Below, one piece after another: positions 23,521 to 35,991 of a DNA stretch of 42,310 bases. The position numbers and the translations under genes are program-made. Below the pieces are notes generated by a model. It worked only from the letters and a program-made list of their open reading frames with translations. It made no database searches and was not told the origin of the DNA. Source of the stretch: a virus (taxonomy: Duplodnaviria > Heunggongvirae > Uroviricota > Caudoviricetes); IMG/VR virus record IMGVR_UViG_643692022_000008, one strand, 5' to 3'. Each line of letters starts with the position of its first letter. The first letter of the stretch is position 1.

Positions 23521-24480
23521 TTAATTTACCATCAGTCTTAGAGCCAGTTCGTCCGGATAGGGATCGAAGTAATTCTGTGTAAGCAAGTAATCATTAGGAT
23601 ACTCACCCAGATAATGCTTCAGCAGAGTCAACGGCGCAAGAAGAGGTAATGTGCCAGAACGATAGTTAAGTATAACCTCGCTCAACTCTTTACGCTGGCG
23701 TGTACTTAAGTAGTTACTAAAATACCCCTGTATATGCATCAGCACATTCGTGTGATTTTTACGTGATGCAGGTTTTCTGAGAATCGCCATCAGCTTATCA
23801 CGATACACCTCAAAGTATGATTCAAGGTCCGCCCACTCGTGTATTGCAGCCACAAATGGTCCCATATCTTTATAGCCTGCCTGACTATGCGCCAACAACT
23901 GAAGCTTATAACGACTATGAAAAGCTAATAACTCTCTTCTTGATAATTTCTCCTTGTAAAGGTGATTGAGCTCATGCAAAGCAAAAACTCTTTCAACAAA
24001 ATTCTCACGAAGCACTGGATCATGTAATCGCCCATCCTCTTCAACCGGTAGCCAGGAAAACTTTTCCATCAAAGTGCTCGTAAATAGTCCCACTCCATCT
24101 TTACGACCTCGATTACCATTTTCATCATAGACACGCACGCGCTCCATGCCACAGCTGGGAGATTTAGCACAAACCACAAACCCCGATACATCCTTTAATT
24201 TGTCCATATAAGAACGACTAAACTCTGTCATTCTCTCTGTCACATCCTCATTCTGGTCGTGGCTGAAACACATCCGTATATTTCCTTGCGTCGAGCGCAC
24301 AAGACGTAGAGCAGGACGCGGAACTGGCAGCCCTATAGCCATTTCTGGACATACTGGTCTGAATGTTACCCATTCCACTAATTTGTCCATTAAAAAGTCA
24401 GCTCTTTTGTGACCACCATCAAAACGAACAGCAGAACCGGCCAAACAACCGCTGATTCCAATCACAGGTTTTTTTATCAT
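23521..24480 (-). CDS. DUF523 + DUF1722 (YbgA-like) protein, possible Fe-S desulfidase-type enzyme
   Basis: 319-aa ORF; N-terminal Cys-rich region (GISGCLAGS, PVCPEM, CAKSPSCGME) and YbgA-like C-terminal half. Confidence 0.65.
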   Translation of the reverse strand: MIKKPVIGISGCLAGSAVRFDGGHKRADFLMDKLVEWVTFRPVCPEMAIGLPVPRPALRLVRSTQGNIRMCFSHDQNEDVTERMTEFSRSYMDKLKDVSGFVVCAKSPSCGMERVRVYDENGNRGRKDGVGLFTSTLMEKFSWLPVEEDGRLHDPVLRENFVERVFALHELNHLYKEKLSRRELLAFHSRYKLQLLAHSQAGYKDMGPFVAAIHEWADLESYFEVYRDKLMAILRKPASRKNHTNVLMHIQGYFSNYLSTRQRKELSEVILNYRSGTLPLLAPLTLLKHYLGEYPNDYLLTQNYFDPYPDELALRLMVN

Positions 24481-24672
24481 ATTCTCCCCCTTGACTAATT
24501 CATTAACATATAAACTGTGTAGTGCACGGAATAAATTGCCTTTCTGGCGTCATCACTGACAATTTTTCTGTTATGGACTATTCCTAATATAGTATGAAAG
24601 TTCTTTAAGTGATCGGTCGTAATCATCTATCTTTCATACTTACTCTCAACTATCAAAAGTACAGGATTTATT

Positions 24673-25197
24673 ATGAAGTTATGGCCTGTGTTGACTGGCA
24701 TTGCACTCTCTTTCACTCTTATAGCATGTAAGGCCCCGACACCACCTAAAGGTGTGCAGCCGATTACAAATTTTGACGCCAACCGCTACCTCGGAAAATG
24801 GTATGAAATAGCTCGCCTCGAGAACCGGTTCGAACGTGGTCTGGAACAGGTCAGCGCTACTTATGGAAAACGGAACGACGGAGGGATTCGTGTACTTAAC
24901 CGTGGATACGATCCAACGAAAAATAAATGGAGCGAGAGCGAAGGTAAAGCATACTTTACTGGAGATACTAAAACTGCAGCGTTGAAGGTTTCGTTTTTTG
25001 GCCCCTTCTATGGTGGCTATAATGTAATCAAACTGGATGATGAGTATAAGTATGCTCTTGTCAGTGGTCCGAACAGAGAATACCTATGGATTCTGGCAAG
25101 GACCCCAACTATTCCAGATAAAGTAAAAGCAGACTATGTGCGAACCGCTCAAAAGTTGGGATTCAATGTCAATGAATTATTATGGGTTAAACAATAA
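24673..25197 (+). CDS. blc: Outer-membrane lipoprotein Blc (bacterial lipocalin)
   Basis: Lipobox LIAC; NFDANRYLGKWYEIARLENRFERGLEQVSATY and KVSFFGPFYGGYNVIKLD match E. coli Blc motifs. Confidence 0.85.
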   Translation: MKLWPVLTGIALSFTLIACKAPTPPKGVQPITNFDANRYLGKWYEIARLENRFERGLEQVSATYGKRNDGGIRVLNRGYDPTKNKWSESEGKAYFTGDTKTAALKVSFFGPFYGGYNVIKLDDEYKYALVSGPNREYLWILARTPTIPDKVKADYVRTAQKLGFNVNELLWVKQ

Positions 25198-25351: not shown

Positions 25352-25744
25352 TTATTTCGAACAATCAGCATCCATCTCCAATCGGAGATCCAACACCATC
25401 AGCATACCCTCCACTACGCCCTCAGCTTTCTGGAGCATCCTGCCAACCCAACAATCAGATCGCCCATGCTTACGTGCAAGCGCCATAAAAGTCATGCCGC
25501 CGACATAATAGTCCACCAATAAATCATGCAAATCGCTGTTGTTCTTTTTCAGACGGGCCATGCACCCGCAAATGATCATCGCGTCATCGTCACAACATTG
25601 TGGGCGAGATTTTACTTTTGAAGGAATTAATCCCTTAAAACCGGCGGCAATGGACGACCAGGTCACATCTTCATGATTATTAGCCGCCCACGCTCCCCAA
25701 CGCTCAAGAACCATCTGAATATCACGCATCAACTTACTCCACAA
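25352..25744 (-). CDS. Q: Late antiterminator Q (QuuD-like)
   Basis: [22 protein letters not shown]... Cys-rich Q-family protein; lies between rusA and the lysis region as in DLP12. True start may be the internal ATG (MRDIQ). Confidence 0.8.
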
Positions 25745-26601: not shown

Positions 26602-26764
26602 GATTCCTCCTTGCTGCCAGTCGCAACCATTTTTTATCAACCAGGCTAGCGGTATATCCGAGCAGTGTTGGTATTTCGGATGGCTTCAGCTCAGGCTTAC
26701 GCTTACGACGATTTGATACTCTGTAGATGTGTCCGTTCATGACACGAATAAGCGGTGTAGCCAT
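26594..26764 (-). CDS. ninE: NinE-like protein
   Basis: Short basic ORF (RRKRKP...WLRLAARR) between the ybcN-like and ybcO-like genes; start taken at internal ATG abutting the upstream stop. Confidence 0.55.
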   Translation of the reverse strand: MATPLIRVMNGHIYRVSNRRKRKPELKPSEIPTLLGYTASLVDKKWLRLAARRNHG

Positions 26765-27219
26765 TACGCCTCCTGCTTGTCGCGGAGCAGCTGGAACTCG
26801 CAGCTCTGCGGAATAGTCAGGTGGCAGCCAATATTCACCGCCCAAGCTTCAACCTTACACAGGAAGATATACATCTCTCCGGTATCAAGATCGGAGGTAT
26901 GGCGTAACGACTGGATAGCGGTGATCTCACCGGTTACGACATCAACCAGGTCTTTGGTTTCATAACCGAGATATGTGTGTTTGAGAGCATCTTTTACCCA
27001 AGCTGGAGTGGCGAACGTTTTACCACTGCTGATGAGGTATTCACTGATTTCGCTGTACCACATGTGGCTGAGTGCATTCTGGGAAAGACTGCGTTTCTCA
27101 CGCCACGGTTTAAGCACCATGCGAAAGCATTTTCCGTCCTCCAGATAAGGCTGGATCTGCTGGCCGATAGCGGTGAAGTTGCCGCGATGTAGTTTGATGC
27201 CGTCTTGTGGGAGGTTCAC
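26764..27219 (-). CDS. ybcN: YbcN-like protein (DUF1367)
   Basis: 151-aa [33 protein letters not shown]... matching DLP12 YbcN as remembered. Confidence 0.7.
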
Positions 27220-27406
27220 GCTTCACCTCCGTAGAGGTAAAACGCAGAATACAAAAAATCGCAGGTGCATTTCTGCATCTGTGACGGGAGAAGTGAGTTT
27301 GGATTGTATGTGCGCATAAACGTCCCCGTTTAGCGCAGAAGTCACCGGAGTTGTTCAGGCTCCGATGACATGATTATGGCGGGTTGATTATGGAAAATCA
27401 ATCAAG

Positions 27407-27916
27407 CTATGTTTCATCGGCGAGGTCATCATCTGTGACAATCATGAGGTTAAAGAATGAAATAATGTTTAACCACTGCGAGTAAATATCGCTCGTCATG
27501 CTGGTTAGCTCCTCTCCGTGAAAGAAGGCATCAGGCCCAACCTCATAGTTGAGCTCTTCAAAAAGCTCCATGTTTAATTGGCTAATAAAGAATTGCTTCA
27601 GACCTTTCATTGCATCCTGATTGTTGGTATCTGAGTAATTTATTATGCTCCCCATTGCCATGTTCAAACATCGAACAATATTGGCTGCGTCATGAAAGCT
27701 CCAGTCAGCCCCTTTCTTTCCTTTTGAGTATGAATTCGCTCTCTCAGCGCAAGCTTTTAATGTCTCGTACAAATACTGCTTTCCTTGCAACTGCAAAGCT
27801 TTTTCGGATGTGGCCCTGCTAGCTTCTGAGGATCGCCATGCTAAATAAGTTGCTACCGCAGATGCGATAGCTGCAATCGCAGAAACTGCATCTATACCGT
27901 TATCCCAACCAGACAT
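27407..27916 (-). CDS. Hypothetical membrane-anchored protein (AT-rich cargo gene in nin region)
   Basis: 169-aa ORF with one N-terminal hydrophobic helix (AVSAIAAIASAVATYLAW); AT-rich; RBS embedded in a hairpin at 27923-27942. Confidence 0.6.
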   Translation of the reverse strand: MSGWDNGIDAVSAIAAIASAVATYLAWRSSEASRATSEKALQLQGKQYLYETLKACAERANSYSKGKKGADWSFHDAANIVRCLNMAMGSIINYSDTNNQDAMKGLKQFFISQLNMELFEELNYEVGPDAFFHGEELTSMTSDIYSQWLNIISFFNLMIVTDDDLADET

Positions 27917-27965
27917 AAAAACCCCCTCGATTATTTGAGGGGATTATACCTTCAAAGTTTCCGCG

Positions 27966-28187
27966 CTACCCATTCATAACTAAAGCTTTTGCTTTCCAAT
28001 GAGAAAGCGCGCTATGTTCGCTAGAACCTGTTTCGACTATATGGCGCCCCCAGGAATCTCCCCATGCCCTCCACGTTGACTTGCCGGTTTGGACTACTGT
28101 GACAACATACTCTTTGCCGTCGATGTTAACTTCATGCTGCACTGGTGATTGTGATTTCATTTTCAAACCTCTGCTTATCGTTGACAT
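27966..28187 (-). CDS. Small hypothetical protein
   Basis: 73-aa ORF; more likely starts at internal ATG 28160 (MKSQSPV...), which has an AGAGG RBS. Confidence 0.45.
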   Translation of the reverse strand: MSTISRGLKMKSQSPVQHEVNIDGKEYVVTVVQTGKSTWRAWGDSWGRHIVETGSSEHSALSHWKAKALVMNG

Positions 28188-28307
28188 CGCAATTATGCTG
28201 TCACGACATAATCACTTCGCCTCCTGCTGCGGTGCTGCTGCGATCATGGCCTTCCATTGGTGGTCTGGGCTCCATAATCTACCGCCATCTTCACACTCTT
28301 CCTGCGC

Positions 28308-29018
28308 CTAATGGTACGCCTCACGCATTTCTGGAGTTGGCTCCTTAGGAACCAGCACCCAACCATCCGGAATCACCGGAGAGTTGCTGACGGGCGACTC
28401 GGAAATTTTTGGCGAAGAATCTAGGGCTGGCGCGGTCTGCATGGTGGTGGGCGACTCGGCTTTTTCGGCACCCTGAAGCATGGCGTCGCGGCATCCGTCA
28501 TACGCTTCTTTCATAGCATCACGCACCCATCCGACAGGTTTCTGCTCAGTCAACTCACACCATTTCTCGAATGTGGGCACAGATACCGGAACTGGCGGTG
28601 CTGCATAAAGCGCCTGACAACTCCAGCCAGACCAGTGAGCACCCTCCGCTCTCTCATCATCTTCAGGGCGAACAAGCGTGACTTCGCTCGGGTGTTTCCT
28701 GTGTGACCACAGCCAGGCTACGGTTTCGGCATTGGCTGGCTCTGGCGGGGCGGAGTAAAAATACTCATCCTCAATCCCATCAACGGGCTTTGAGAAGCCG
28801 ATAAAATCACCATAATGCCAAGGATAGGGGCCGTATGGCTCAGAGGTCACACGACGCCACCGGTGAATGGCAGGCTCCGCTTCGAGCGATGCCAGCGCGA
28901 TACGCAGTGCCGCCAGCGTGTTGCTGTCGCCTTCGTCCAGACCGAACGGGATTTCATCTCTGGCTGCTTCCATGTCGGCAATTTTCTGCTGCAGCCATTG
29001 TTTGGTAATAGTGCTCAT
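28308..29018 (-). CDS. Hypothetical phage protein
   Basis: 236-aa ORF in the early-right operon, overlapping the upstream gene. Confidence 0.55.
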   Translation of the reverse strand: MSTITKQWLQQKIADMEAARDEIPFGLDEGDSNTLAALRIALASLEAEPAIHRWRRVTSEPYGPYPWHYGDFIGFSKPVDGIEDEYFYSAPPEPANAETVAWLWSHRKHPSEVTLVRPEDDERAEGAHWSGWSCQALYAAPPVPVSVPTFEKWCELTEQKPVGWVRDAMKEAYDGCRDAMLQGAEKAESPTTMQTAPALDSSPKISESPVSNSPVIPDGWVLVPKEPTPEMREAYH

Positions 29019-29428
29019 GATGCCTCTCCTTTACCGGATGCGGCGGCGATCAGCTTCTGCGCCTGCTGAATGTCAGGATTGCCTGCAATCATCACTTCTG
29101 GCGCGTCACAGTCACCGCCAAGGTCAAGAATGCGCTCATGTCCGGTACGCAGGCAGGATTTGTATCCTGAAACCGTCTGCTTGAGCGATTCGGTCAGCAC
29201 AGCAATCCTCTGGTCTTTGGCTTCCAGCTCATCCAGCAGCGCCAGCACTGTGGCTGGGTTGGCTGCGGAGTTCAGCGCGTTCAAGGCAGTGATATCTGCA
29301 TCAAGCTGAGTTCCTTCTGCCAGTGAGATATCGAAAATGTCATCAGGCGGCATAACACTAAGGCGCTCATGCGCACCAACTGCTGCCTCAGCGATTTCAC
29401 GTAATGCGCGTTTGTCGATGTTGCTCAT
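29015..29428 (-). CDS. Hypothetical phage protein (MSNIDK paralog 1)
   Basis: 137-aa ORF; first 20 nt identical to the neighbouring gene's start. Confidence 0.55.
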   Translation of the reverse strand: MSNIDKRALREIAEAAVGAHERLSVMPPDDIFDISLAEGTQLDADITALNALNSAANPATVLALLDELEAKDQRIAVLTESLKQTVSGYKSCLRTGHERILDLGGDCDAPEVMIAGNPDIQQAQKLIAAASGKGEAS

Positions 29429-29852: not shown

Positions 29853-30142
29853 ACCCCTACCCTCCCCCAAACCATCAACACCCGCTTCATCGCGGCACTC
29901 TGGCGACACTCCTTAAAAATCAGGTTAGTGCTCACCTTTCCTTCCCGTTCTTCCCTGGTAGCGAATCTGTAATACACCGTTCGCCAGACCTTACCATCAA
30001 TGACCAAGATTCCTGCCCGCGCCATTTTAGCCGCAGCCTGATTTATGCTGGTTACTGTTGCGCCTGTTGCCGCAGCTACATCCGGCGCGCAGAAAGTCCG
30101 GTGCGTTTTCAGGTAGTGAAGAATTGCCTCTTTGCCTGTCAT
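29849..30142 (-). CDS. ren: Ren-like protein
   Basis: 97-aa ORF immediately downstream of P and overlapping its stop, the position and size of lambda ren; sequence identity is from memory only. Confidence 0.55.
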   Translation of the reverse strand: MTGKEAILHYLKTHRTFCAPDVAAATGATVTSINQAAAKMARAGILVIDGKVWRTVYYRFATREEREGKVSTNLIFKECRQSAAMKRVLMVWGRVGV

Positions 30143-30840
30143 ACACTGGCTCCTTTCAGTCCGAACTTAGCTTTGATTTCTGCGATCTTCGCCAGAGCCT
30201 GAGCCCGGTTAAGTGGTCTACCGCCCATGACAGGAAGTTGTTTTACTGGTTCAGGTATAGCCTCACCACGGTTAATTCGTGCGGTCATACAGGACAGTTC
30301 ATCGGCAGCCTTGCGCCGTAATTCCGCGTCAGTCAACGCATTGGCCCGCATGTTCTGATACAGGTTGGTAACCAGCCAGTAGTGCGCGTTTGATTTCCAC
30401 GGATAAGACTCCGCATCCGGATACAGGCCTCGCTTCCGGCAATACTCGTAAACCATATCAACCAGCTCGCTGACGTTTGGCAGTCCGGCGATAACGGATG
30501 CTTCTTCCCGGCACCATGCAACAAACTGCCCGGGTGATGGCAGGAATGGTCGATTCTGCCGACGGGCTACGCGCATTCCTGCGTTAACCTGTTCCATTGT
30601 GGTGATCCCGTTTTCCCGGAAAGCCAGAACCCACTGGCGGCGGATTTCGTTCAGTTCGTTCTGATCCCGGTTAGCCAGGCTCGCAGGGAAAGTTGCCAGT
30701 AACTGGCTGAACACACCGTTGATGATCTGCGCTACCTGCTGTACCTGCGGCTTTTCGTCGTACTGTTCCAGCATATTGTTGGCGATCCGGCGCATCTGCT
30801 CACGGTCAAAGTTAACCATCTGTGCGGCGATGTTTTTCAT
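30139..30840 (-). CDS. P: Replication protein P (DnaB helicase loader)
   Basis: 233-aa protein MKNIAAQMVNFDREQMRRIANNM... essentially matching lambda P as remembered. Confidence 0.95.
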   Translation of the reverse strand: MKNIAAQMVNFDREQMRRIANNMLEQYDEKPQVQQVAQIINGVFSQLLATFPASLANRDQNELNEIRRQWVLAFRENGITTMEQVNAGMRVARRQNRPFLPSPGQFVAWCREEASVIAGLPNVSELVDMVYEYCRKRGLYPDAESYPWKSNAHYWLVTNLYQNMRANALTDAELRRKAADELSCMTARINRGEAIPEPVKQLPVMGGRPLNRAQALAKIAEIKAKFGLKGASV

Positions 30841-31856
30841 AAATCCACCCCGTAAATCCAGTCAGTGTTCGTCAGGTCGAGTTTTGGTTTGCCGGCTGTC
30901 ACGCCAGCCTGTTGCTTGTTTCGGTTGATTTCGAGCTGGGTCCACTTGTCGCGGAGTTTGGCCGGACTCAGCACGTTACCGGACCAGAAGTTGTCCTGGC
31001 ATGCCCAGCGGAACAGTACACACATATCGCGGTGGTTACGCCCGTCACGCTCACGCATCAGGCGGATATCGTTAGCCCACCCTGCAAAATTCGGTTTTCT
31101 GGCTGATGGCGCGATGGTCTTCACCATGTCAAACATCCACTCTGCGGCGGTCAGGTCTTCTGCTGTCCCCCACTTGCTGCCGCTCTGAATCGCAGCATCC
31201 GGTTTCACCACAGGAAGGTCGTTTTCTGGCTGGTCAGAGTATTCGCCAGAATTCTCGGACGAATAAGGTTTTATATTGTCTTTTGTTAGTTTGTCTTTTG
31301 TGTTTACCTGATTCGGGTAAGTGCCTTTACCTGATTTGGGTAAACTTTTCTTACCTGATTCAGGTAAATTTACCTCTTTCAGGTAAACTTTATTTTTCTT
31401 ACCTGATTCGGGTAATGTTGACCATTCACTGACCACATTATTAATGCCTATATTCCGCCCGCTCTGAATAAAAATCCCACGCTTTACCAGAACACTTTTT
31501 GCAGCAGAACACTTGTGCGGCAATATCCCGGTCAACTCGGAAAGTTGCTCGTTGCTCACCCAATCCAGTTTTTTATTAAAGCCATATGTTTTGCGCATGA
31601 CAGCCAGGAAGACCAGAAGCTGGTGCTGTGTTAATCCGGCCAGCATTACAGCTTCCAGCAACTCATTTGCAATGCGCGTATAACCATCATCGAGATCTGC
31701 CACGCGCGGCTCCTTTTGTGCCGCATCCGGCACAGGAAAATTGAATATCTCAGCAGTGTTTGCCATAATTCCTCCCGCAATGAGTGTGTTACGATTTGCA
31801 CCTGAAAGTCGGTTCTGTTCCCGCAGACCGACTTTCGCCATTTTTAAACCTGTCAT
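30837..31856 (-). CDS. O: Replication initiator O (lambda O-like C-terminus, distinct N-terminal DNA-binding domain)
   Basis: 339-aa ORF overlapping P; contains the iteron array and AT-rich tract internally; C-terminal region resembles lambda O. Confidence 0.9.
   Translation of the reverse strand: MTGLKMAKVGLREQNRLSGANRNTLIAGGIMANTAEIFNFPVPDAAQKEPRVADLDDGYTRIANELLEAVMLAGLTQHQLLVFLAVMRKTYGFNKKLDWVSNEQLSELTGILPHKCSAAKSVLVKRGIFIQSGRNIGINNVVSEWSTLPESGKKNKVYLKEVNLPESGKKSLPKSGKGTYPNQVNTKDKLTKDNIKPYSSENSGEYSDQPENDLPVVKPDAAIQSGSKWGTAEDLTAAEWMFDMVKTIAPSARKPNFAGWANDIRLMRERDGRNHRDMCVLFRWACQDNFWSGNVLSPAKLRDKWTQLEINRNKQQAGVTAGKPKLDLTNTDWIYGVDL
31304..31415. repeat. Replication origin iterons inside the O gene
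   Basis: Five ~17-bp copies of TTACCTGATTCGGGTAA-like repeats at 31304-31320, 31327-31343, 31351-31367, 31369-31386 and 31399-31415, followed in the direction of O transcription by an AT-rich tract (31261-31300). Confidence 0.85.
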
Positions 31857-33582: not shown

Positions 33583-34722
33583 ATGGCAGCGGTTGAATTT
33601 CAATTGTCTAGGAAGATGATTGATTGGATAGCAAATTCTCAAGGAGTTTCTATCGAAACTCTTGCTGACCAAGTCATGCCCAAAAAGATTAATAAATTTC
33701 TTAACGGAGTGGTAAGTAAATCCGCAGCAGAAAAACTGGCAAAAATTGGAGGAATCCCTTTCGGTTTTTTATTTCTTGAAACGCCACCAACTCCAGCCAA
33801 ACCCAAGATCCCTGACTTAAGGCAAGCTATAAATAGCCGTGAGTTAGGAAAAGATTTTTTTGATGTTTACTATGATATAGAATATAAACTTGAGTGGTAC
33901 AAAGACTATTTAAGAGAAAATGGTAATGATGATCCACTCGATTTTATTGGTAAATTTAAATTTAATAGAAAATTAAATTATAAGGTTGTTGCTACAGACA
34001 TAGCAAACACAATACATTTTGATATACAAAAAGAGATAAAAAATGTCACTTTTGAGAGCTATTTTTCTAAAGTGGCAAAACTAATAGAAGACACTGGCGT
34101 ATTAGTTTTCAAGAATGGTGTTGTGGGTAATAATAATAAAAGAAAACTTGACACGCGAGAGTTTCGTGGTTTCTGTATATCTGATAGCGTTGCTCCGATC
34201 ATTTTTGTAAATAGCTCGGACGCGTTATCTGCGCAGGTATTTACATTATTTCATGAGGTGGCTCATCTTTGGCTTGGAGTCGATGGAGTCTCTGGGTGGG
34301 ACACAGAAAAAAACATAGAATCTTTTTGTAATAAAGTTGCTGCTGAAATCTTAATGCCTGATAATCTCTTCAAATCTTTCTGGCTTAATGCATCCAGCGA
34401 TAATAATTATTATCGAGTAAAAGAGGTTTCTAAGTTATTTAAGGTTAGTGATTTCGCTTGTGCAATCAAAGCGTTACAATTAGATTTGATAGAAAGAAAC
34501 ACTTTGGAGATAATTAAAGATCAAGCTTACAATAAGCCCAAAAAAGAATCCAATGGTGGTTCTTTCTTTAACACATTACCTGTTCGTAACAGTCCAAAAC
34601 TTACGAATATAATAATTTCCAAAGCAATGTCTCAACAATTACCATTAAGGGAAGCAGGCGTACTGCTAAATGTAAAAGCAGATACAGTTGTTGAATTTTA
34701 TAAAAAACGAGAATCTCTATGA
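33583..34722 (+). CDS. HTH + ImmA/IrrE-family (DUF955/COG2856-like) HEXXH metallopeptidase
   Basis: 379-aa AT-rich ORF with AGGTGA RBS; N-terminal XRE-like HTH; HEVAH motif at 34251-34265; stop overlaps the next gene's start (ATGA at 34719-34722). Confidence 0.7.
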   Translation: MAAVEFQLSRKMIDWIANSQGVSIETLADQVMPKKINKFLNGVVSKSAAEKLAKIGGIPFGFLFLETPPTPAKPKIPDLRQAINSRELGKDFFDVYYDIEYKLEWYKDYLRENGNDDPLDFIGKFKFNRKLNYKVVATDIANTIHFDIQKEIKNVTFESYFSKVAKLIEDTGVLVFKNGVVGNNNKRKLDTREFRGFCISDSVAPIIFVNSSDALSAQVFTLFHEVAHLWLGVDGVSGWDTEKNIESFCNKVAAEILMPDNLFKSFWLNASSDNNYYRVKEVSKLFKVSDFACAIKALQLDLIERNTLEIIKDQAYNKPKKESNGGSFFNTLPVRNSPKLTNIIISKAMSQQLPLREAGVLLNVKADTVVEFYKKRESL

Positions 34723-35231
34723 TTCATAATGGAAAATTCTTAATTGATAGTAATGTCTTCATAGAGGCAAAAAACTTTGCATATAACTTCAATTATTGCA
34801 AAATATTTTGGGATTTTCTTCTCGCTTTACACATTAAAGGTCTGATTTATAGCATTAATGCTGTAAAAAAAGAACTATGTGCAAAAGATGATCCATTGTG
34901 TAAATGGATTAAAGAAGAGTTACCATCATCATTCTTCGAAGATGAGCATAGTTCAATAGAAAATTATGCAAAGTTAATAAATTGGTCAACTAAATTAGAT
35001 GTTACCGAAAAGGCAAAGTTTGATTTTGCAAGCCATGAAAAAGCAGATGCTTTTTTAATAGCCCATGCGATGACACATGGATATACTATTATTACCCATG
35101 AGAAACCATCCGGTGGCAAACCTAAAAAAAGAATAATGATCCCGGATGCTGCTGCTTCTCACGGCGTTAAGACATTAACACTATATGAATTTCTTCCAAG
35201 ATACGCTAGTCATAATTTTTCTTTGAAATAA
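34719..35231 (+). CDS. DUF4411 PIN-like putative nuclease
   Basis: 170-aa AT-rich ORF translationally coupled to the upstream peptidase; N-terminal FLIDSNVFIEA strand with conserved Asp typical of PIN-like folds. Confidence 0.65.
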   Translation: MIHNGKFLIDSNVFIEAKNFAYNFNYCKIFWDFLLALHIKGLIYSINAVKKELCAKDDPLCKWIKEELPSSFFEDEHSSIENYAKLINWSTKLDVTEKAKFDFASHEKADAFLIAHAMTHGYTIITHEKPSGGKPKKRIMIPDAAASHGVKTLTLYEFLPRYASHNFSLK

Positions 35232-35236
35232 AACGT

Positions 35237-35263
35237 CCCGGCCACCGTGCCGGGTTTTCTTTT
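35237..35263 (+). terminator. Rho-independent terminator after the two-gene module (tIMM-like)
   Basis: Hairpin cccggc/caccgt/gccggg (35237-35254) followed by ttttctttt. Confidence 0.7.
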
Positions 35264-35379
35264 GCCTCCCCTCATCACACACACCATTCAAAAAACCACC
35301 ACAACCCCGCTTCAGTTATCGCTATGCGATGCAAGTCACAAAATTAATTCTTTTTGCTATCAAATATTTAATATCAAAA

Positions 35380-35432
35380 CACATCTAGCAATAGCAATAA
35401 GTATTGATATCATCAATAGCAATAGCTATTAT
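35380..35432 (+). promoter_or_regulatory. OL-like operators with candidate pL promoter
   Basis: CAATAGCAA(T) motifs at 35386-35397 and 35414-35426 match the OR motif; TTGATA (35404-35409), 17-bp spacer, TATTAT (35427-35432) on the + strand facing gam-bet-exo. Confidence 0.55.
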
Positions 35433-35625
35433 CACCATGTCGCAACAACACAACGATACGGCAATCACCTGATTCACCGTTGCGATGACCGCTTAGATCC
35501 GCAGCTTGAATTTCAGCAGGCTCCGGGGAGTGCGAGGGGTGAAGCGGACGCGTGAACGTCGGTGTGACCAGCTGAAATCAACTCAACACTTCATACCTCA
35601 GTCGCTTCAACGAGGCGGCTTAGTT

Positions 35626-35916
35626 ATGACAACCGGCGGCCATCCACCGCCTGAATACGCGCAGAAGTCTTTATATGTTCAGCAGCCCAGCTTACGGGCA
35701 GGAGTTTTTATGGTTCATCAACATTACGGAACGCAGACCGTTAATCGCGGTGCGGTCATGCCAGGAATGCTGGTCAAACACAAAGATGGTACCTGGACTG
35801 CATCAGCTAATTTACGCGGACGGCTTTATCTGCATCGCGGCATCGAGCGCACTTATACCCGTGATTTGCTCGTGGAAGTTTTTCTCGACGGACGCGGTAA
35901 CGGCCTCAATCACTAA
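35626..35916 (+). CDS. Hypothetical early-left protein
   Basis: ORF between the OL-like region and gam; start uncertain (track ORF starts at 35506, internal ATG at 35626 has a GAGG RBS). Confidence 0.35.
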
Positions 35917-35991
35917 TCCCCTTTCCTGTTTTCCTAATCAGCCTGGCATTTCGCGGGCGATATTTTCACAGCCATTTTCAGGAGTTCAGCC

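Follow-up and report, generated by a model that had tools for sequence, protein, structure and literature searches.

A conserved predicted hairpin opens a variable gene slot at the start of the nin region in lambdoid phages

A moron, in the sense of Juhala and Hendrix, is an extra gene with its own promoter, its own terminator and a deviant composition. Some superinfection-exclusion and abortive-infection proteins of temperate phages, such as SieB of phages lambda and P22, SieA of P22 and gp15 of HK97, are small and membrane-anchored, have an N-terminal hydrophobic segment and are encoded in the early operon or an accessory slot. The lambda terminator tR2 has an in vivo efficiency of approximately 0.9, and its termination collapses if a translated open reading frame (ORF) ends a few base pairs upstream (PMC4824070). 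Here, we describe the equivalent position in a 42,310-nucleotide stretch of viral DNA, IMG/VR record IMGVR_UViG_643692022_000008 (hereafter, the window). The window represents a lambdoid prophage of E. coli, of the type of DLP12 and phage 82, and its early-right operon is on the minus strand. At the start of the nin region is a hairpin, followed by a gene for a 169-residue protein that resembles the exclusion proteins in size, N-terminal hydrophobic segment and early-operon setting. A sequence-only reading had described the hairpin as a possible intrinsic terminator for upstream early transcripts, overlapping the ribosome-binding site of a tightly controlled and possibly toxic or exclusion-type gene. 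We find the same hairpin before unrelated genes at the same position. Hence, it belongs to the locus and not to the gene.

Read on the minus strand, the junction runs ggTATAAT-CCCCTC-AAATAATC-GAGGGG-G-TTTTT-ATG. The arms of the 6-bp core lie at 27942-27923 and the ATG is at 27916. The GC-rich hairpin noted from the sequence alone (cccctc/gattattt/gagggg, 27923-27942) is present but extends to a 9-bp stem. In the full predicted stem, AAUCCCCUC at 27945-27937 pairs with GAGGGGGUU at 27928-27920, with a free energy of about -14 kcal/mol. Overlap between the hairpin and the ribosome-binding site was also correctly recognised; the 3' arm is the only Shine-Dalgarno-like sequence. Indeed, all coordinates and sequence features in that reading could be confirmed. 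The parts of the junction are as follows.

27943..27948, minus strand: invariant TATAAT hexamer at the 5' foot of the hairpin, last three nucleotides paired
27920..27945, minus strand: conserved stem-loop AAUCCCCUC-AAAUAAUC-GAGGGGGUU at the tR2 position, terminator-like
27923..27928, minus strand: GAGGGG, 3' arm and sole Shine-Dalgarno-like sequence, 6 nucleotides ahead of the ATG
27917..27921, minus strand: run of five T (U-tract) from hairpin to start codon
27407..27916, minus strand: 169-residue cargo gene of the PHROG 1779 family, WP_000017329.1 hypothetical protein, an ORF with an ATG start

By analogy, the junction element is a positional and architectural counterpart of lambda tR2, with a putative terminator function. 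In lambda, the sequence directly before ninB is ...cTAATAAc-AGGCCTGC-tggTAATC-GCAGGCCT-TTTTATTT..., followed by the ninB ribosome-binding site and ATG. Both elements lie after the replication and ren genes, directly before the first nin gene and in the sense of the pR operon. They also share their build: a G+C-rich stem of 7-9 bp, an 8-nucleotide loop ending UAAUC, a U5AU tail, an A/T-rich 5' flank and a start codon close behind. The stem sequences differ (GGCCUGC/GCAGGCC in lambda, CCCCUC/GAGGGG here). In lambda, the ribosome-binding site is separate and 20 nucleotides downstream, whereas here the 3' arm is itself the Shine-Dalgarno sequence, with the ATG 6 nucleotides on. Beyond the A/T-rich TAATAA, tR2 has no counterpart of TATAAT. 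Five G-C pairs in a 9-bp stem, a U-rich tract and location between ren and nin in the pR sense all agree with a tR2-type intrinsic terminator. The terminator anatomy claimed for the hairpin is therefore there, while termination itself is a prediction. A lenient terminator scan of 3 kb found seven sites where 3.5 +/- 2.2 were expected, which is not significant alone, and an Rfam scan of 26700-28700 matched no family. The significance of the hairpin derives from conservation with covariation and not from the scan.

The hairpin is conserved within the 169-residue family. Homologues ranging from 100% down to approximately 50% protein identity keep TATA(A/C)T, the 9-bp stem and usually the U-run; sequences further upstream are unrelated. 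TATAAT or TATACT is found in 17 of 17 hairpin-bearing contexts. At stem position 2, A-U becomes C-G in three sequences, where the change from TATAAT to TATACT is matched by a change from ATT to AGT. Position 7 passes from C-G via U-G to U-A, the Phytobacter stem has an inserted G-C pair and several single-sided changes retain G-U pairs. The loops vary freely in sequence and length (at least nine are different). Stem pairs were tabulated by script; a MAFFT alignment had misregistered three of the hairpins. One sub-branch (L014, L043, L048 and L052) keeps the hairpin and U-run but has a separate GGAG or GAGGAG ribosome-binding site 17-20 nucleotides downstream. Hence, occlusion of the ribosome-binding site is not the conserved feature. 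Distant homologues (L266-L273) do not have the element, which is therefore tied to the nin junction rather than to the protein family. We also considered whether every cargo gene has its own copy of the element in front, as in an array of cassettes. This was rejected; in L043 and L047 the intergenic region between the gene of the 169-residue family and a homologue of the DNA polymerase III theta subunit contains a different hairpin.

Viral contigs were scanned with the pattern TATAATCCCCTC-N5-10-GAGGGG, which matched at least 120 stretches. The first ORF behind the element, among the matches listed, was as follows.

43 loci: theta homologues
29 loci: a 60-residue protein
13 loci: the 169-residue family
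7 loci: a protein of 122-128 residues that looks secreted
2 loci: a 164-residue family
Several loci: singletons
29 loci: no ORF found by a simple ORF caller

Loci in the last class are at least partly a caller artefact: in several, stops interrupt a theta-like frame, and others are perfect palindromes. Counted together, genes of at least nine unrelated families follow the element at this position in other lambdoid phages. At essentially all informative loci, marker genes place it downstream of O, P, ren or DUF551 and upstream of NinB, YbcN, NinE, NinG, RusA or Q, and its orientation is that of the operon. Among 93 unique contexts the loop is 5-10 nucleotides long, and 69 have at least five T in the eight nucleotides after GAGGGG. 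Of the 68 contexts in which an ORF follows, 57 have GAGGGG 5-9 nucleotides before the ATG. An upstream stop codon lies 0-6 nucleotides before TATAAT, or overlaps it (-5), in 38 of 79. The stop codon is frequently 2-5 nucleotides ahead of the hexamer, which fits with the loss of tR2 termination caused by a translated ORF ending nearby. In 59 contexts retrieved without asking for TATAAT, the hexamer was TATAAT 45 times, TACAAT twice and CATAAT once.

Judged from these alignments, a conserved 35-nucleotide element (TATAAT, 9-bp stem, 5-10-nucleotide loop, U-run and ATG) opens a variable slot where the nin region begins. We consider this junction element a more notable result than the 169-residue gene. 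Because the hairpin is generic to the locus, it says nothing about toxicity of the gene behind it. At the nin junction, a hairpin over the ribosome-binding site is common to the site and does not mark a dangerous gene. The argument from this arrangement to a tightly controlled toxic or exclusion-type gene thus fails. What emerges is a sharply conserved junction between ren/ead and nin, behind which small genes are swapped in phages of Escherichia, Klebsiella, Enterobacter and their relatives. Should the element prove to be a terminator, promoter, coupling device or recombination joint, this would explain regulation of the slot and exchange of its cargo. If so, TATAATCCCCTC...GAGGGG would be a sequence handle for harvesting accessory, defence or counter-defence gene candidates from prophages.

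Nearly all genes behind the element (loci L105-L223) start with ATG TCN, encoding Met-Ser, and the N-terminus MSGWD of the 169-residue family resembles MS(D/Q/K)WN of the theta homologues. This shared start suggests that recombination joints may fall inside the first codons. In two loci (L101, 3491-3973; L104, 584-1066) the gene after the theta homologue of the slot encodes a 160-residue protein with the sequence RNNLLH (Rx4H, HEPN-like). This protein is a possible toxin or defence cargo of the same slot.

The 169-residue gene behaves as mobile cargo. It occurs in 25 of 5426 complete E. coli genomes, with 100% identity, whereas the adjoining ybcN leader is in 2822. The 1-kb region around the gene recurs at 100% identity in E. 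coli WS0115A and in further complete genomes; NCTC9112 and MIN9 also carry the identical cassette. The gene is A+T-rich relative to its flanks, as had been pointed out: GC content is 0.431 (0.459 at third codon positions), below that of ybcN (0.511), the DUF551-like gene (0.563), P (0.538) and the window as a whole (0.50). Upstream, depending on lineage, there is a 64-residue ORF, a directly adjacent DUF551-type gene, other small ORFs or Rha. The downstream gene is usually ybcN/NinB and sometimes a theta homologue. Hence, a conserved partner gene was rejected, since neighbours on both sides vary. Phages PhiR26_1 and PhiR5_1 have a 45%-identical homologue at the same spot, after Rha, and in PhiR26_1 the region between ren and ninB also holds the known defence system PD-lambda-1. 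Homologues of the PhiR type have a long A/T-rich 5' region after the Rha terminator. In Serratia and the most distant relatives the gene is in the early-left operon, between the repressor or N and xis/int. From its distribution, it is a stand-alone mobile single-gene cargo, always in an early operon and co-oriented with it. The description as an insulated cargo gene is borne out to this extent: the gene is compositionally distinct and patchily distributed, and the slot is variable.

Like lambdoid morons, this is a single extra gene of distinct composition with sharp boundaries, present or absent between similar phages. In contrast to morons, it has no demonstrable promoter of its own and lies within the early operon in the same orientation, with the putative terminator before it rather than after it; none is found downstream. 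On one contig (L047, positions 1-1334 from the start of the first gene), two diverged paralogues of 170 and 160 residues flank a theta homologue. Members of the theta and 169-residue families are repeatedly adjacent or alternative to each other (also in L043, L048 and L269).

By sequence conservation, the 169-residue ORF is a real gene. The protein matches phrog_1779 from end to end (E 2.5e-77), its residues 3-167 aligning with positions 2-169 of the 169-position profile. PHROG 1779 has no annotated function and its members are hypothetical prophage proteins. The family is small and restricted to Enterobacterales. A word-indexed search gave 29 clusters at 90% identity, and an exhaustive profile search of 1.84 billion representatives gave 37 clusters at 50% identity. 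Nearly all members are 160-176 residues long and share a layout: a hydrophobic N-terminal helix, A(E/D)(R/K)AN, a conserved Trp approximately 12 residues on (W72), (A/V)ANI, PD and FF, then an acidic C-terminal tail, (T/S)D(E/D)DL(A/E)D. Could the ORF be a decaying remnant, or have arisen by chance? No function or domain is recognised and the structure model is of moderate confidence, as such an ORF might show. However, conservation is full-length (165-176 residues) across Escherichia, Klebsiella, Enterobacter, Serratia, Citrobacter, Kluyvera, Phytobacter, Scandinavium and Rosenbergiella. Together with invariant motifs and a bias of substitutions to third codon positions, this effectively refutes a remnant, which we regard as barely credible.

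A single hydrophobic helix followed by an unrecognised soluble domain had been proposed for this protein. The helix is present and the domain remains unmatched, but membrane insertion is marginal. The Ala/Ser-rich segment (residues ~9-27; codons at 27836..27892, minus strand) is a putative N-out/C-in anchor by hydropathy and by the K/R bias of its flanks. Over residues ~8-27, the 19-residue Kyte-Doolittle maximum is 1.74 here and 1.5-2.4 across the family. The Hessa insertion energy (dG) is +4.3 for this allele and -0.8 to +3.9 in relatives. The segment is variable in sequence across the family and retains its hydrophobicity. Family members have 0-1 K/R in the N-terminal flank and 2-5 in the C-terminal flank; hence, an N-out/C-in topology is predicted. 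A membrane anchor for this allele is plausible but marginal.

Structure prediction gave an all-helical model. In two AlphaFold models (predicted local distance difference test 69.6 and 72.7; 80-93 in the core), a long helix at residues 8-64, of which the anchor part has low confidence, is followed by a bundle of four to five helices. The protein had no match in Pfam or NCBIfam, no match in a sequence-profile search of PDB and no family in the PADLOC-DB 2.0 defence profiles at E up to 1. A Foldseek search of BFVD and PDB found nothing significant (best E ~0.4). Remote homology searching therefore gave no fold or profile homologue in these collections, and no conserved housekeeping phage function was indicated. 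Weak Foldseek neighbours (5yep, 7bxo and 6m6w; E 0.7-1.1, probability 0.35-0.41) raised kinship with HEPN toxins. This was rejected, because the Rx4-6H motif is absent; family alignments have no conserved His after the (R/K)AN motif. An Rz-like spanin was also rejected: no family match was obtained, the lysis cassette does not include the gene, and the distribution of charges predicts a cytoplasmic domain. Compared with SieB, SieA and HK97 gp15, the protein has one hydrophobic helix only, and no similarity was found in Pfam or PADLOC. Literature searches by accession, by PHROG number and for PhiR phages found nothing. A paper on the svsR small RNA was followed as a lead; it concerns the 3' end of cI and is irrelevant to the hairpin. 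Function is not assignable by homology or fold and there is no recognisable catalytic motif. Homology, defence profiles and fold thus provide no evidence for the exclusion or toxin role once suggested. We conclude that the gene is an orphan accessory gene of the variable slot in the nin region, already in RefSeq as a hypothetical protein (the PGAP label in WS0115A, WP_000017329.1).

The best explanation of our data, in which we have moderate confidence, is that the 169-residue ORF is a horizontally exchanged accessory early gene, behind a tR2-type element, with a bitopic membrane product. Transcripts from pR would stop at the hairpin, unless the polymerase were modified for antitermination or a ribosome finishing the upstream ORF blocked folding. 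In read-through RNA, the 3' arm GAGGGG would be the ribosome-binding site, and folding would also throttle translation. The product would be synthesised in small amounts along with those of the delayed-early genes, rather than constitutively from the prophage. It is predicted to be a small bitopic inner-membrane protein, with an N-terminal anchor, a cytoplasmic helical bundle of ~130 residues and an acidic tail. We infer that it may act at the membrane, by binding a host or phage partner in phage-host or phage-phage conflict.

Several observations weigh against this explanation. The anchor is marginal for this allele (dG +4.3) and its helix is modelled at low confidence. A plain terminator does not explain the invariant TATAAT. 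The U-run is missing from 3 of 15 hairpin contexts of the family (c0; L008, L029 and L012), so termination cannot be the sole selected property. The A/T-rich 5' region of PhiR-type homologues could contain a promoter. Finally, no N homologue is recognised in the window, so dependence on N is taken from lambdoid architecture alone. The region from the repressor-side cargo to gam (35247-35990, plus strand) has no N homologue; it contains a TTG-initiated ORF of 136 residues (35506-35916) with an Arg-rich N-terminus, KRTRERR, and no family match.

The element could instead act mainly on translation, with the Shine-Dalgarno sequence sequestered until ribosomes on the upstream ORF melt the stem, and with termination secondary or absent. 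The short distance from GAGGGG to ATG is as expected for such coupling, as is the frequency with which an upstream stop codon falls within reach of a terminating ribosome. In addition, L008 and L012 keep the stem without the U-run. Conversely, the sub-branch with separate ribosome-binding sites (L014, L043, L048 and L052) keeps both stem and U-run, and most contexts have the T-rich tract after the stem. In the window, the stop codon of the 64-residue ORF is 17 nucleotides before TATAAT, which is too far for direct melting. We consider a chiefly translational device possible but rather unlikely. Equally, the element could chiefly be a linker at the DNA level, providing homology for recombinase-mediated cargo swaps, with any RNA function incidental. 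The 5' breakpoint, at which 42 or more unrelated upstream contexts give way to nine or more downstream gene families, falls exactly at the element. Conservation runs on into the first codons (ATG TCN; MSGWD against MS(D/Q/K)WN), as expected for internal joints. For Rad52-like phage recombinases, short diverged homologies reportedly suffice. However, the two conserved blocks are only 12 and ~17 nucleotides long. Moreover, the loop is free to vary while the arms covary, which indicates selection on structure over sequence identity. A role confined to DNA therefore seems distinctly improbable.

A further proposal makes the gene an insulated moron expressed in the lysogen. TATAAT would be a -10 hexamer without a -35, with transcription starting ~7 nucleotides downstream, at the first base of the loop (~27936). 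Transcripts so made would have no 5' arm and would escape both termination and occlusion of the ribosome-binding site, while read-through from upstream would be blocked. The protein would be a superinfection-exclusion or abortive-infection factor expressed by the prophage. TATAAT is nearly invariant, homology between contexts begins exactly there and pairing requires no more than the last three bases of the hexamer. The distance to the loop fits a start at the loop A, the gene is A+T-rich and patchily distributed, and the slot region of PhiR26_1 carries PD-lambda-1. One N-terminal anchoring helix on a small protein is also a common build for exclusion proteins. A canonical sigma-70 promoter, however, was not supported. 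Hexamers resembling a -35 at 16-18 nucleotides were not enriched (mean 2.58 of 6, against 2.2-2.5 at control offsets; 99 contexts, 42 independent upstream sequences). No TGn extension was found, the frequent upstream TG being the TGA stop of the preceding gene, and a promoter scan did not call the TATAAT site. With no terminator behind the gene, a constitutive promoter would read into orf33-ybcN...Q. The element also fronts theta homologues, for which there is no obvious role in a lysogen. Some copies are perfect palindromes, in which TATAAT may merely mirror the T-rich tail, and PADLOC gave no match. On balance, we think lysogenic expression of this kind unlikely. A broader version would make the element a portable socket of enterobacterial lambdoid phages: insulating terminator, -10-only promoter and recombination joint in one. 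Any gene behind it would become lysogen-expressed cargo, and the 169-residue protein would be a new exclusion or abortive-infection factor, anchored in the membrane and encoded by a single gene. We found no description of such a socket in the literature searched, and regard the proposal as very doubtful.

Gene order around the junction agrees with the nin-region setting originally assigned. On the minus strand, the operon runs O, P, ren, ead/DUF551, 64-residue ORF, 169-residue gene, orf33, ybcN, ninE, ybcO, rusA, ylcG and Q. Coordinates are given below.

30837-31856, minus strand: O
30139-30840, minus strand: P
Between P and the ead/DUF551-like genes, minus strand: ren-like ORF
28308-29428, minus strand: small ead/Ea22 and DUF551-like genes
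27966..28160, minus strand: 64-residue upstream ORF, a small protein (a 73-residue reading begins at 28187)
27300..27402, minus strand: conserved leader of the ybcN/ninB block and 3' cargo boundary; matches from 2822 of 5426 E. coli genomes and from 22 phage records reach this part of the query only
27216..27317, minus strand: orf33 (ylcH-like), overlapping the ybcN start; a PGAP coding sequence in WS0115A and orf33 of phage 82
26764-27219, minus strand: ybcN/NinB, followed by ninE, ybcO, rusA and ylcG
25352-25744, minus strand: Q

The small ORF next to the 169-residue gene had been noted as encoding 64-73 residues (27966-28187). Its homologues are 62-64 residues long and 81-94% identical, and substitutions by codon position (9/3/22) have a third-position bias. 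On this sequence evidence, it is a real gene in its 64-residue form. In other prophages, homologues of the ORF are followed, at the same spacing, by the same element and then by a theta homologue in place of the 169-residue gene. Hence, it is not a fixed partner. Neither the 73-residue ORF nor the DUF551-like protein matched a PADLOC-DB 2.0 family at E up to 1. At 28308-28310, the window has the minus-strand codon TAG, where the otherwise identical prophage of WS0115A has CAG. This nonsense change cuts a DUF551/ead-like gene (29018 down to 28212, 268 residues) to 236 residues.

On the other side, the cargo ends at the stop codon of the 169-residue gene; homology to cassette-free phages resumes at ~27402. 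The terminator scan found no terminator-like site between this stop codon (27407) and orf33. Within the interval 27216-27402 (minus strand) are orf33, a promoter-like TTGATT-17-CATAAT and an inverted repeat rich in A/T (TTGATT...AATCAA). A weak terminator-like hairpin with a 5-bp stem (27277-27260) lies inside orf33, just ahead of ybcN. In the phage 82 record, X92588, a putative promoter (-35/-10) and a regulator-binding repeat are annotated at the ybcN leader.

Two other regions of the window carry cargo. Directly after the S24 cI-like repressor (33583-35231, plus strand) are two overlapping genes. The first encodes a 379-residue Peptidase_M78/IrrE-like protein with capP/RmrA-like PADLOC matches (best E 1e-14), and the second a 170-residue DUF4411 protein. 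WS0115A has a different gene at the position of this two-gene cargo. By Q, at 23521-25197, are genes for a 319-residue DUF1722 and 2-thiouracil desulfurase protein (minus strand) and a 174-residue Blc-like lipocalin lipoprotein (plus strand). WS0115A has an OmpC-like porin at this position, which marks it as another swap-prone cargo slot.

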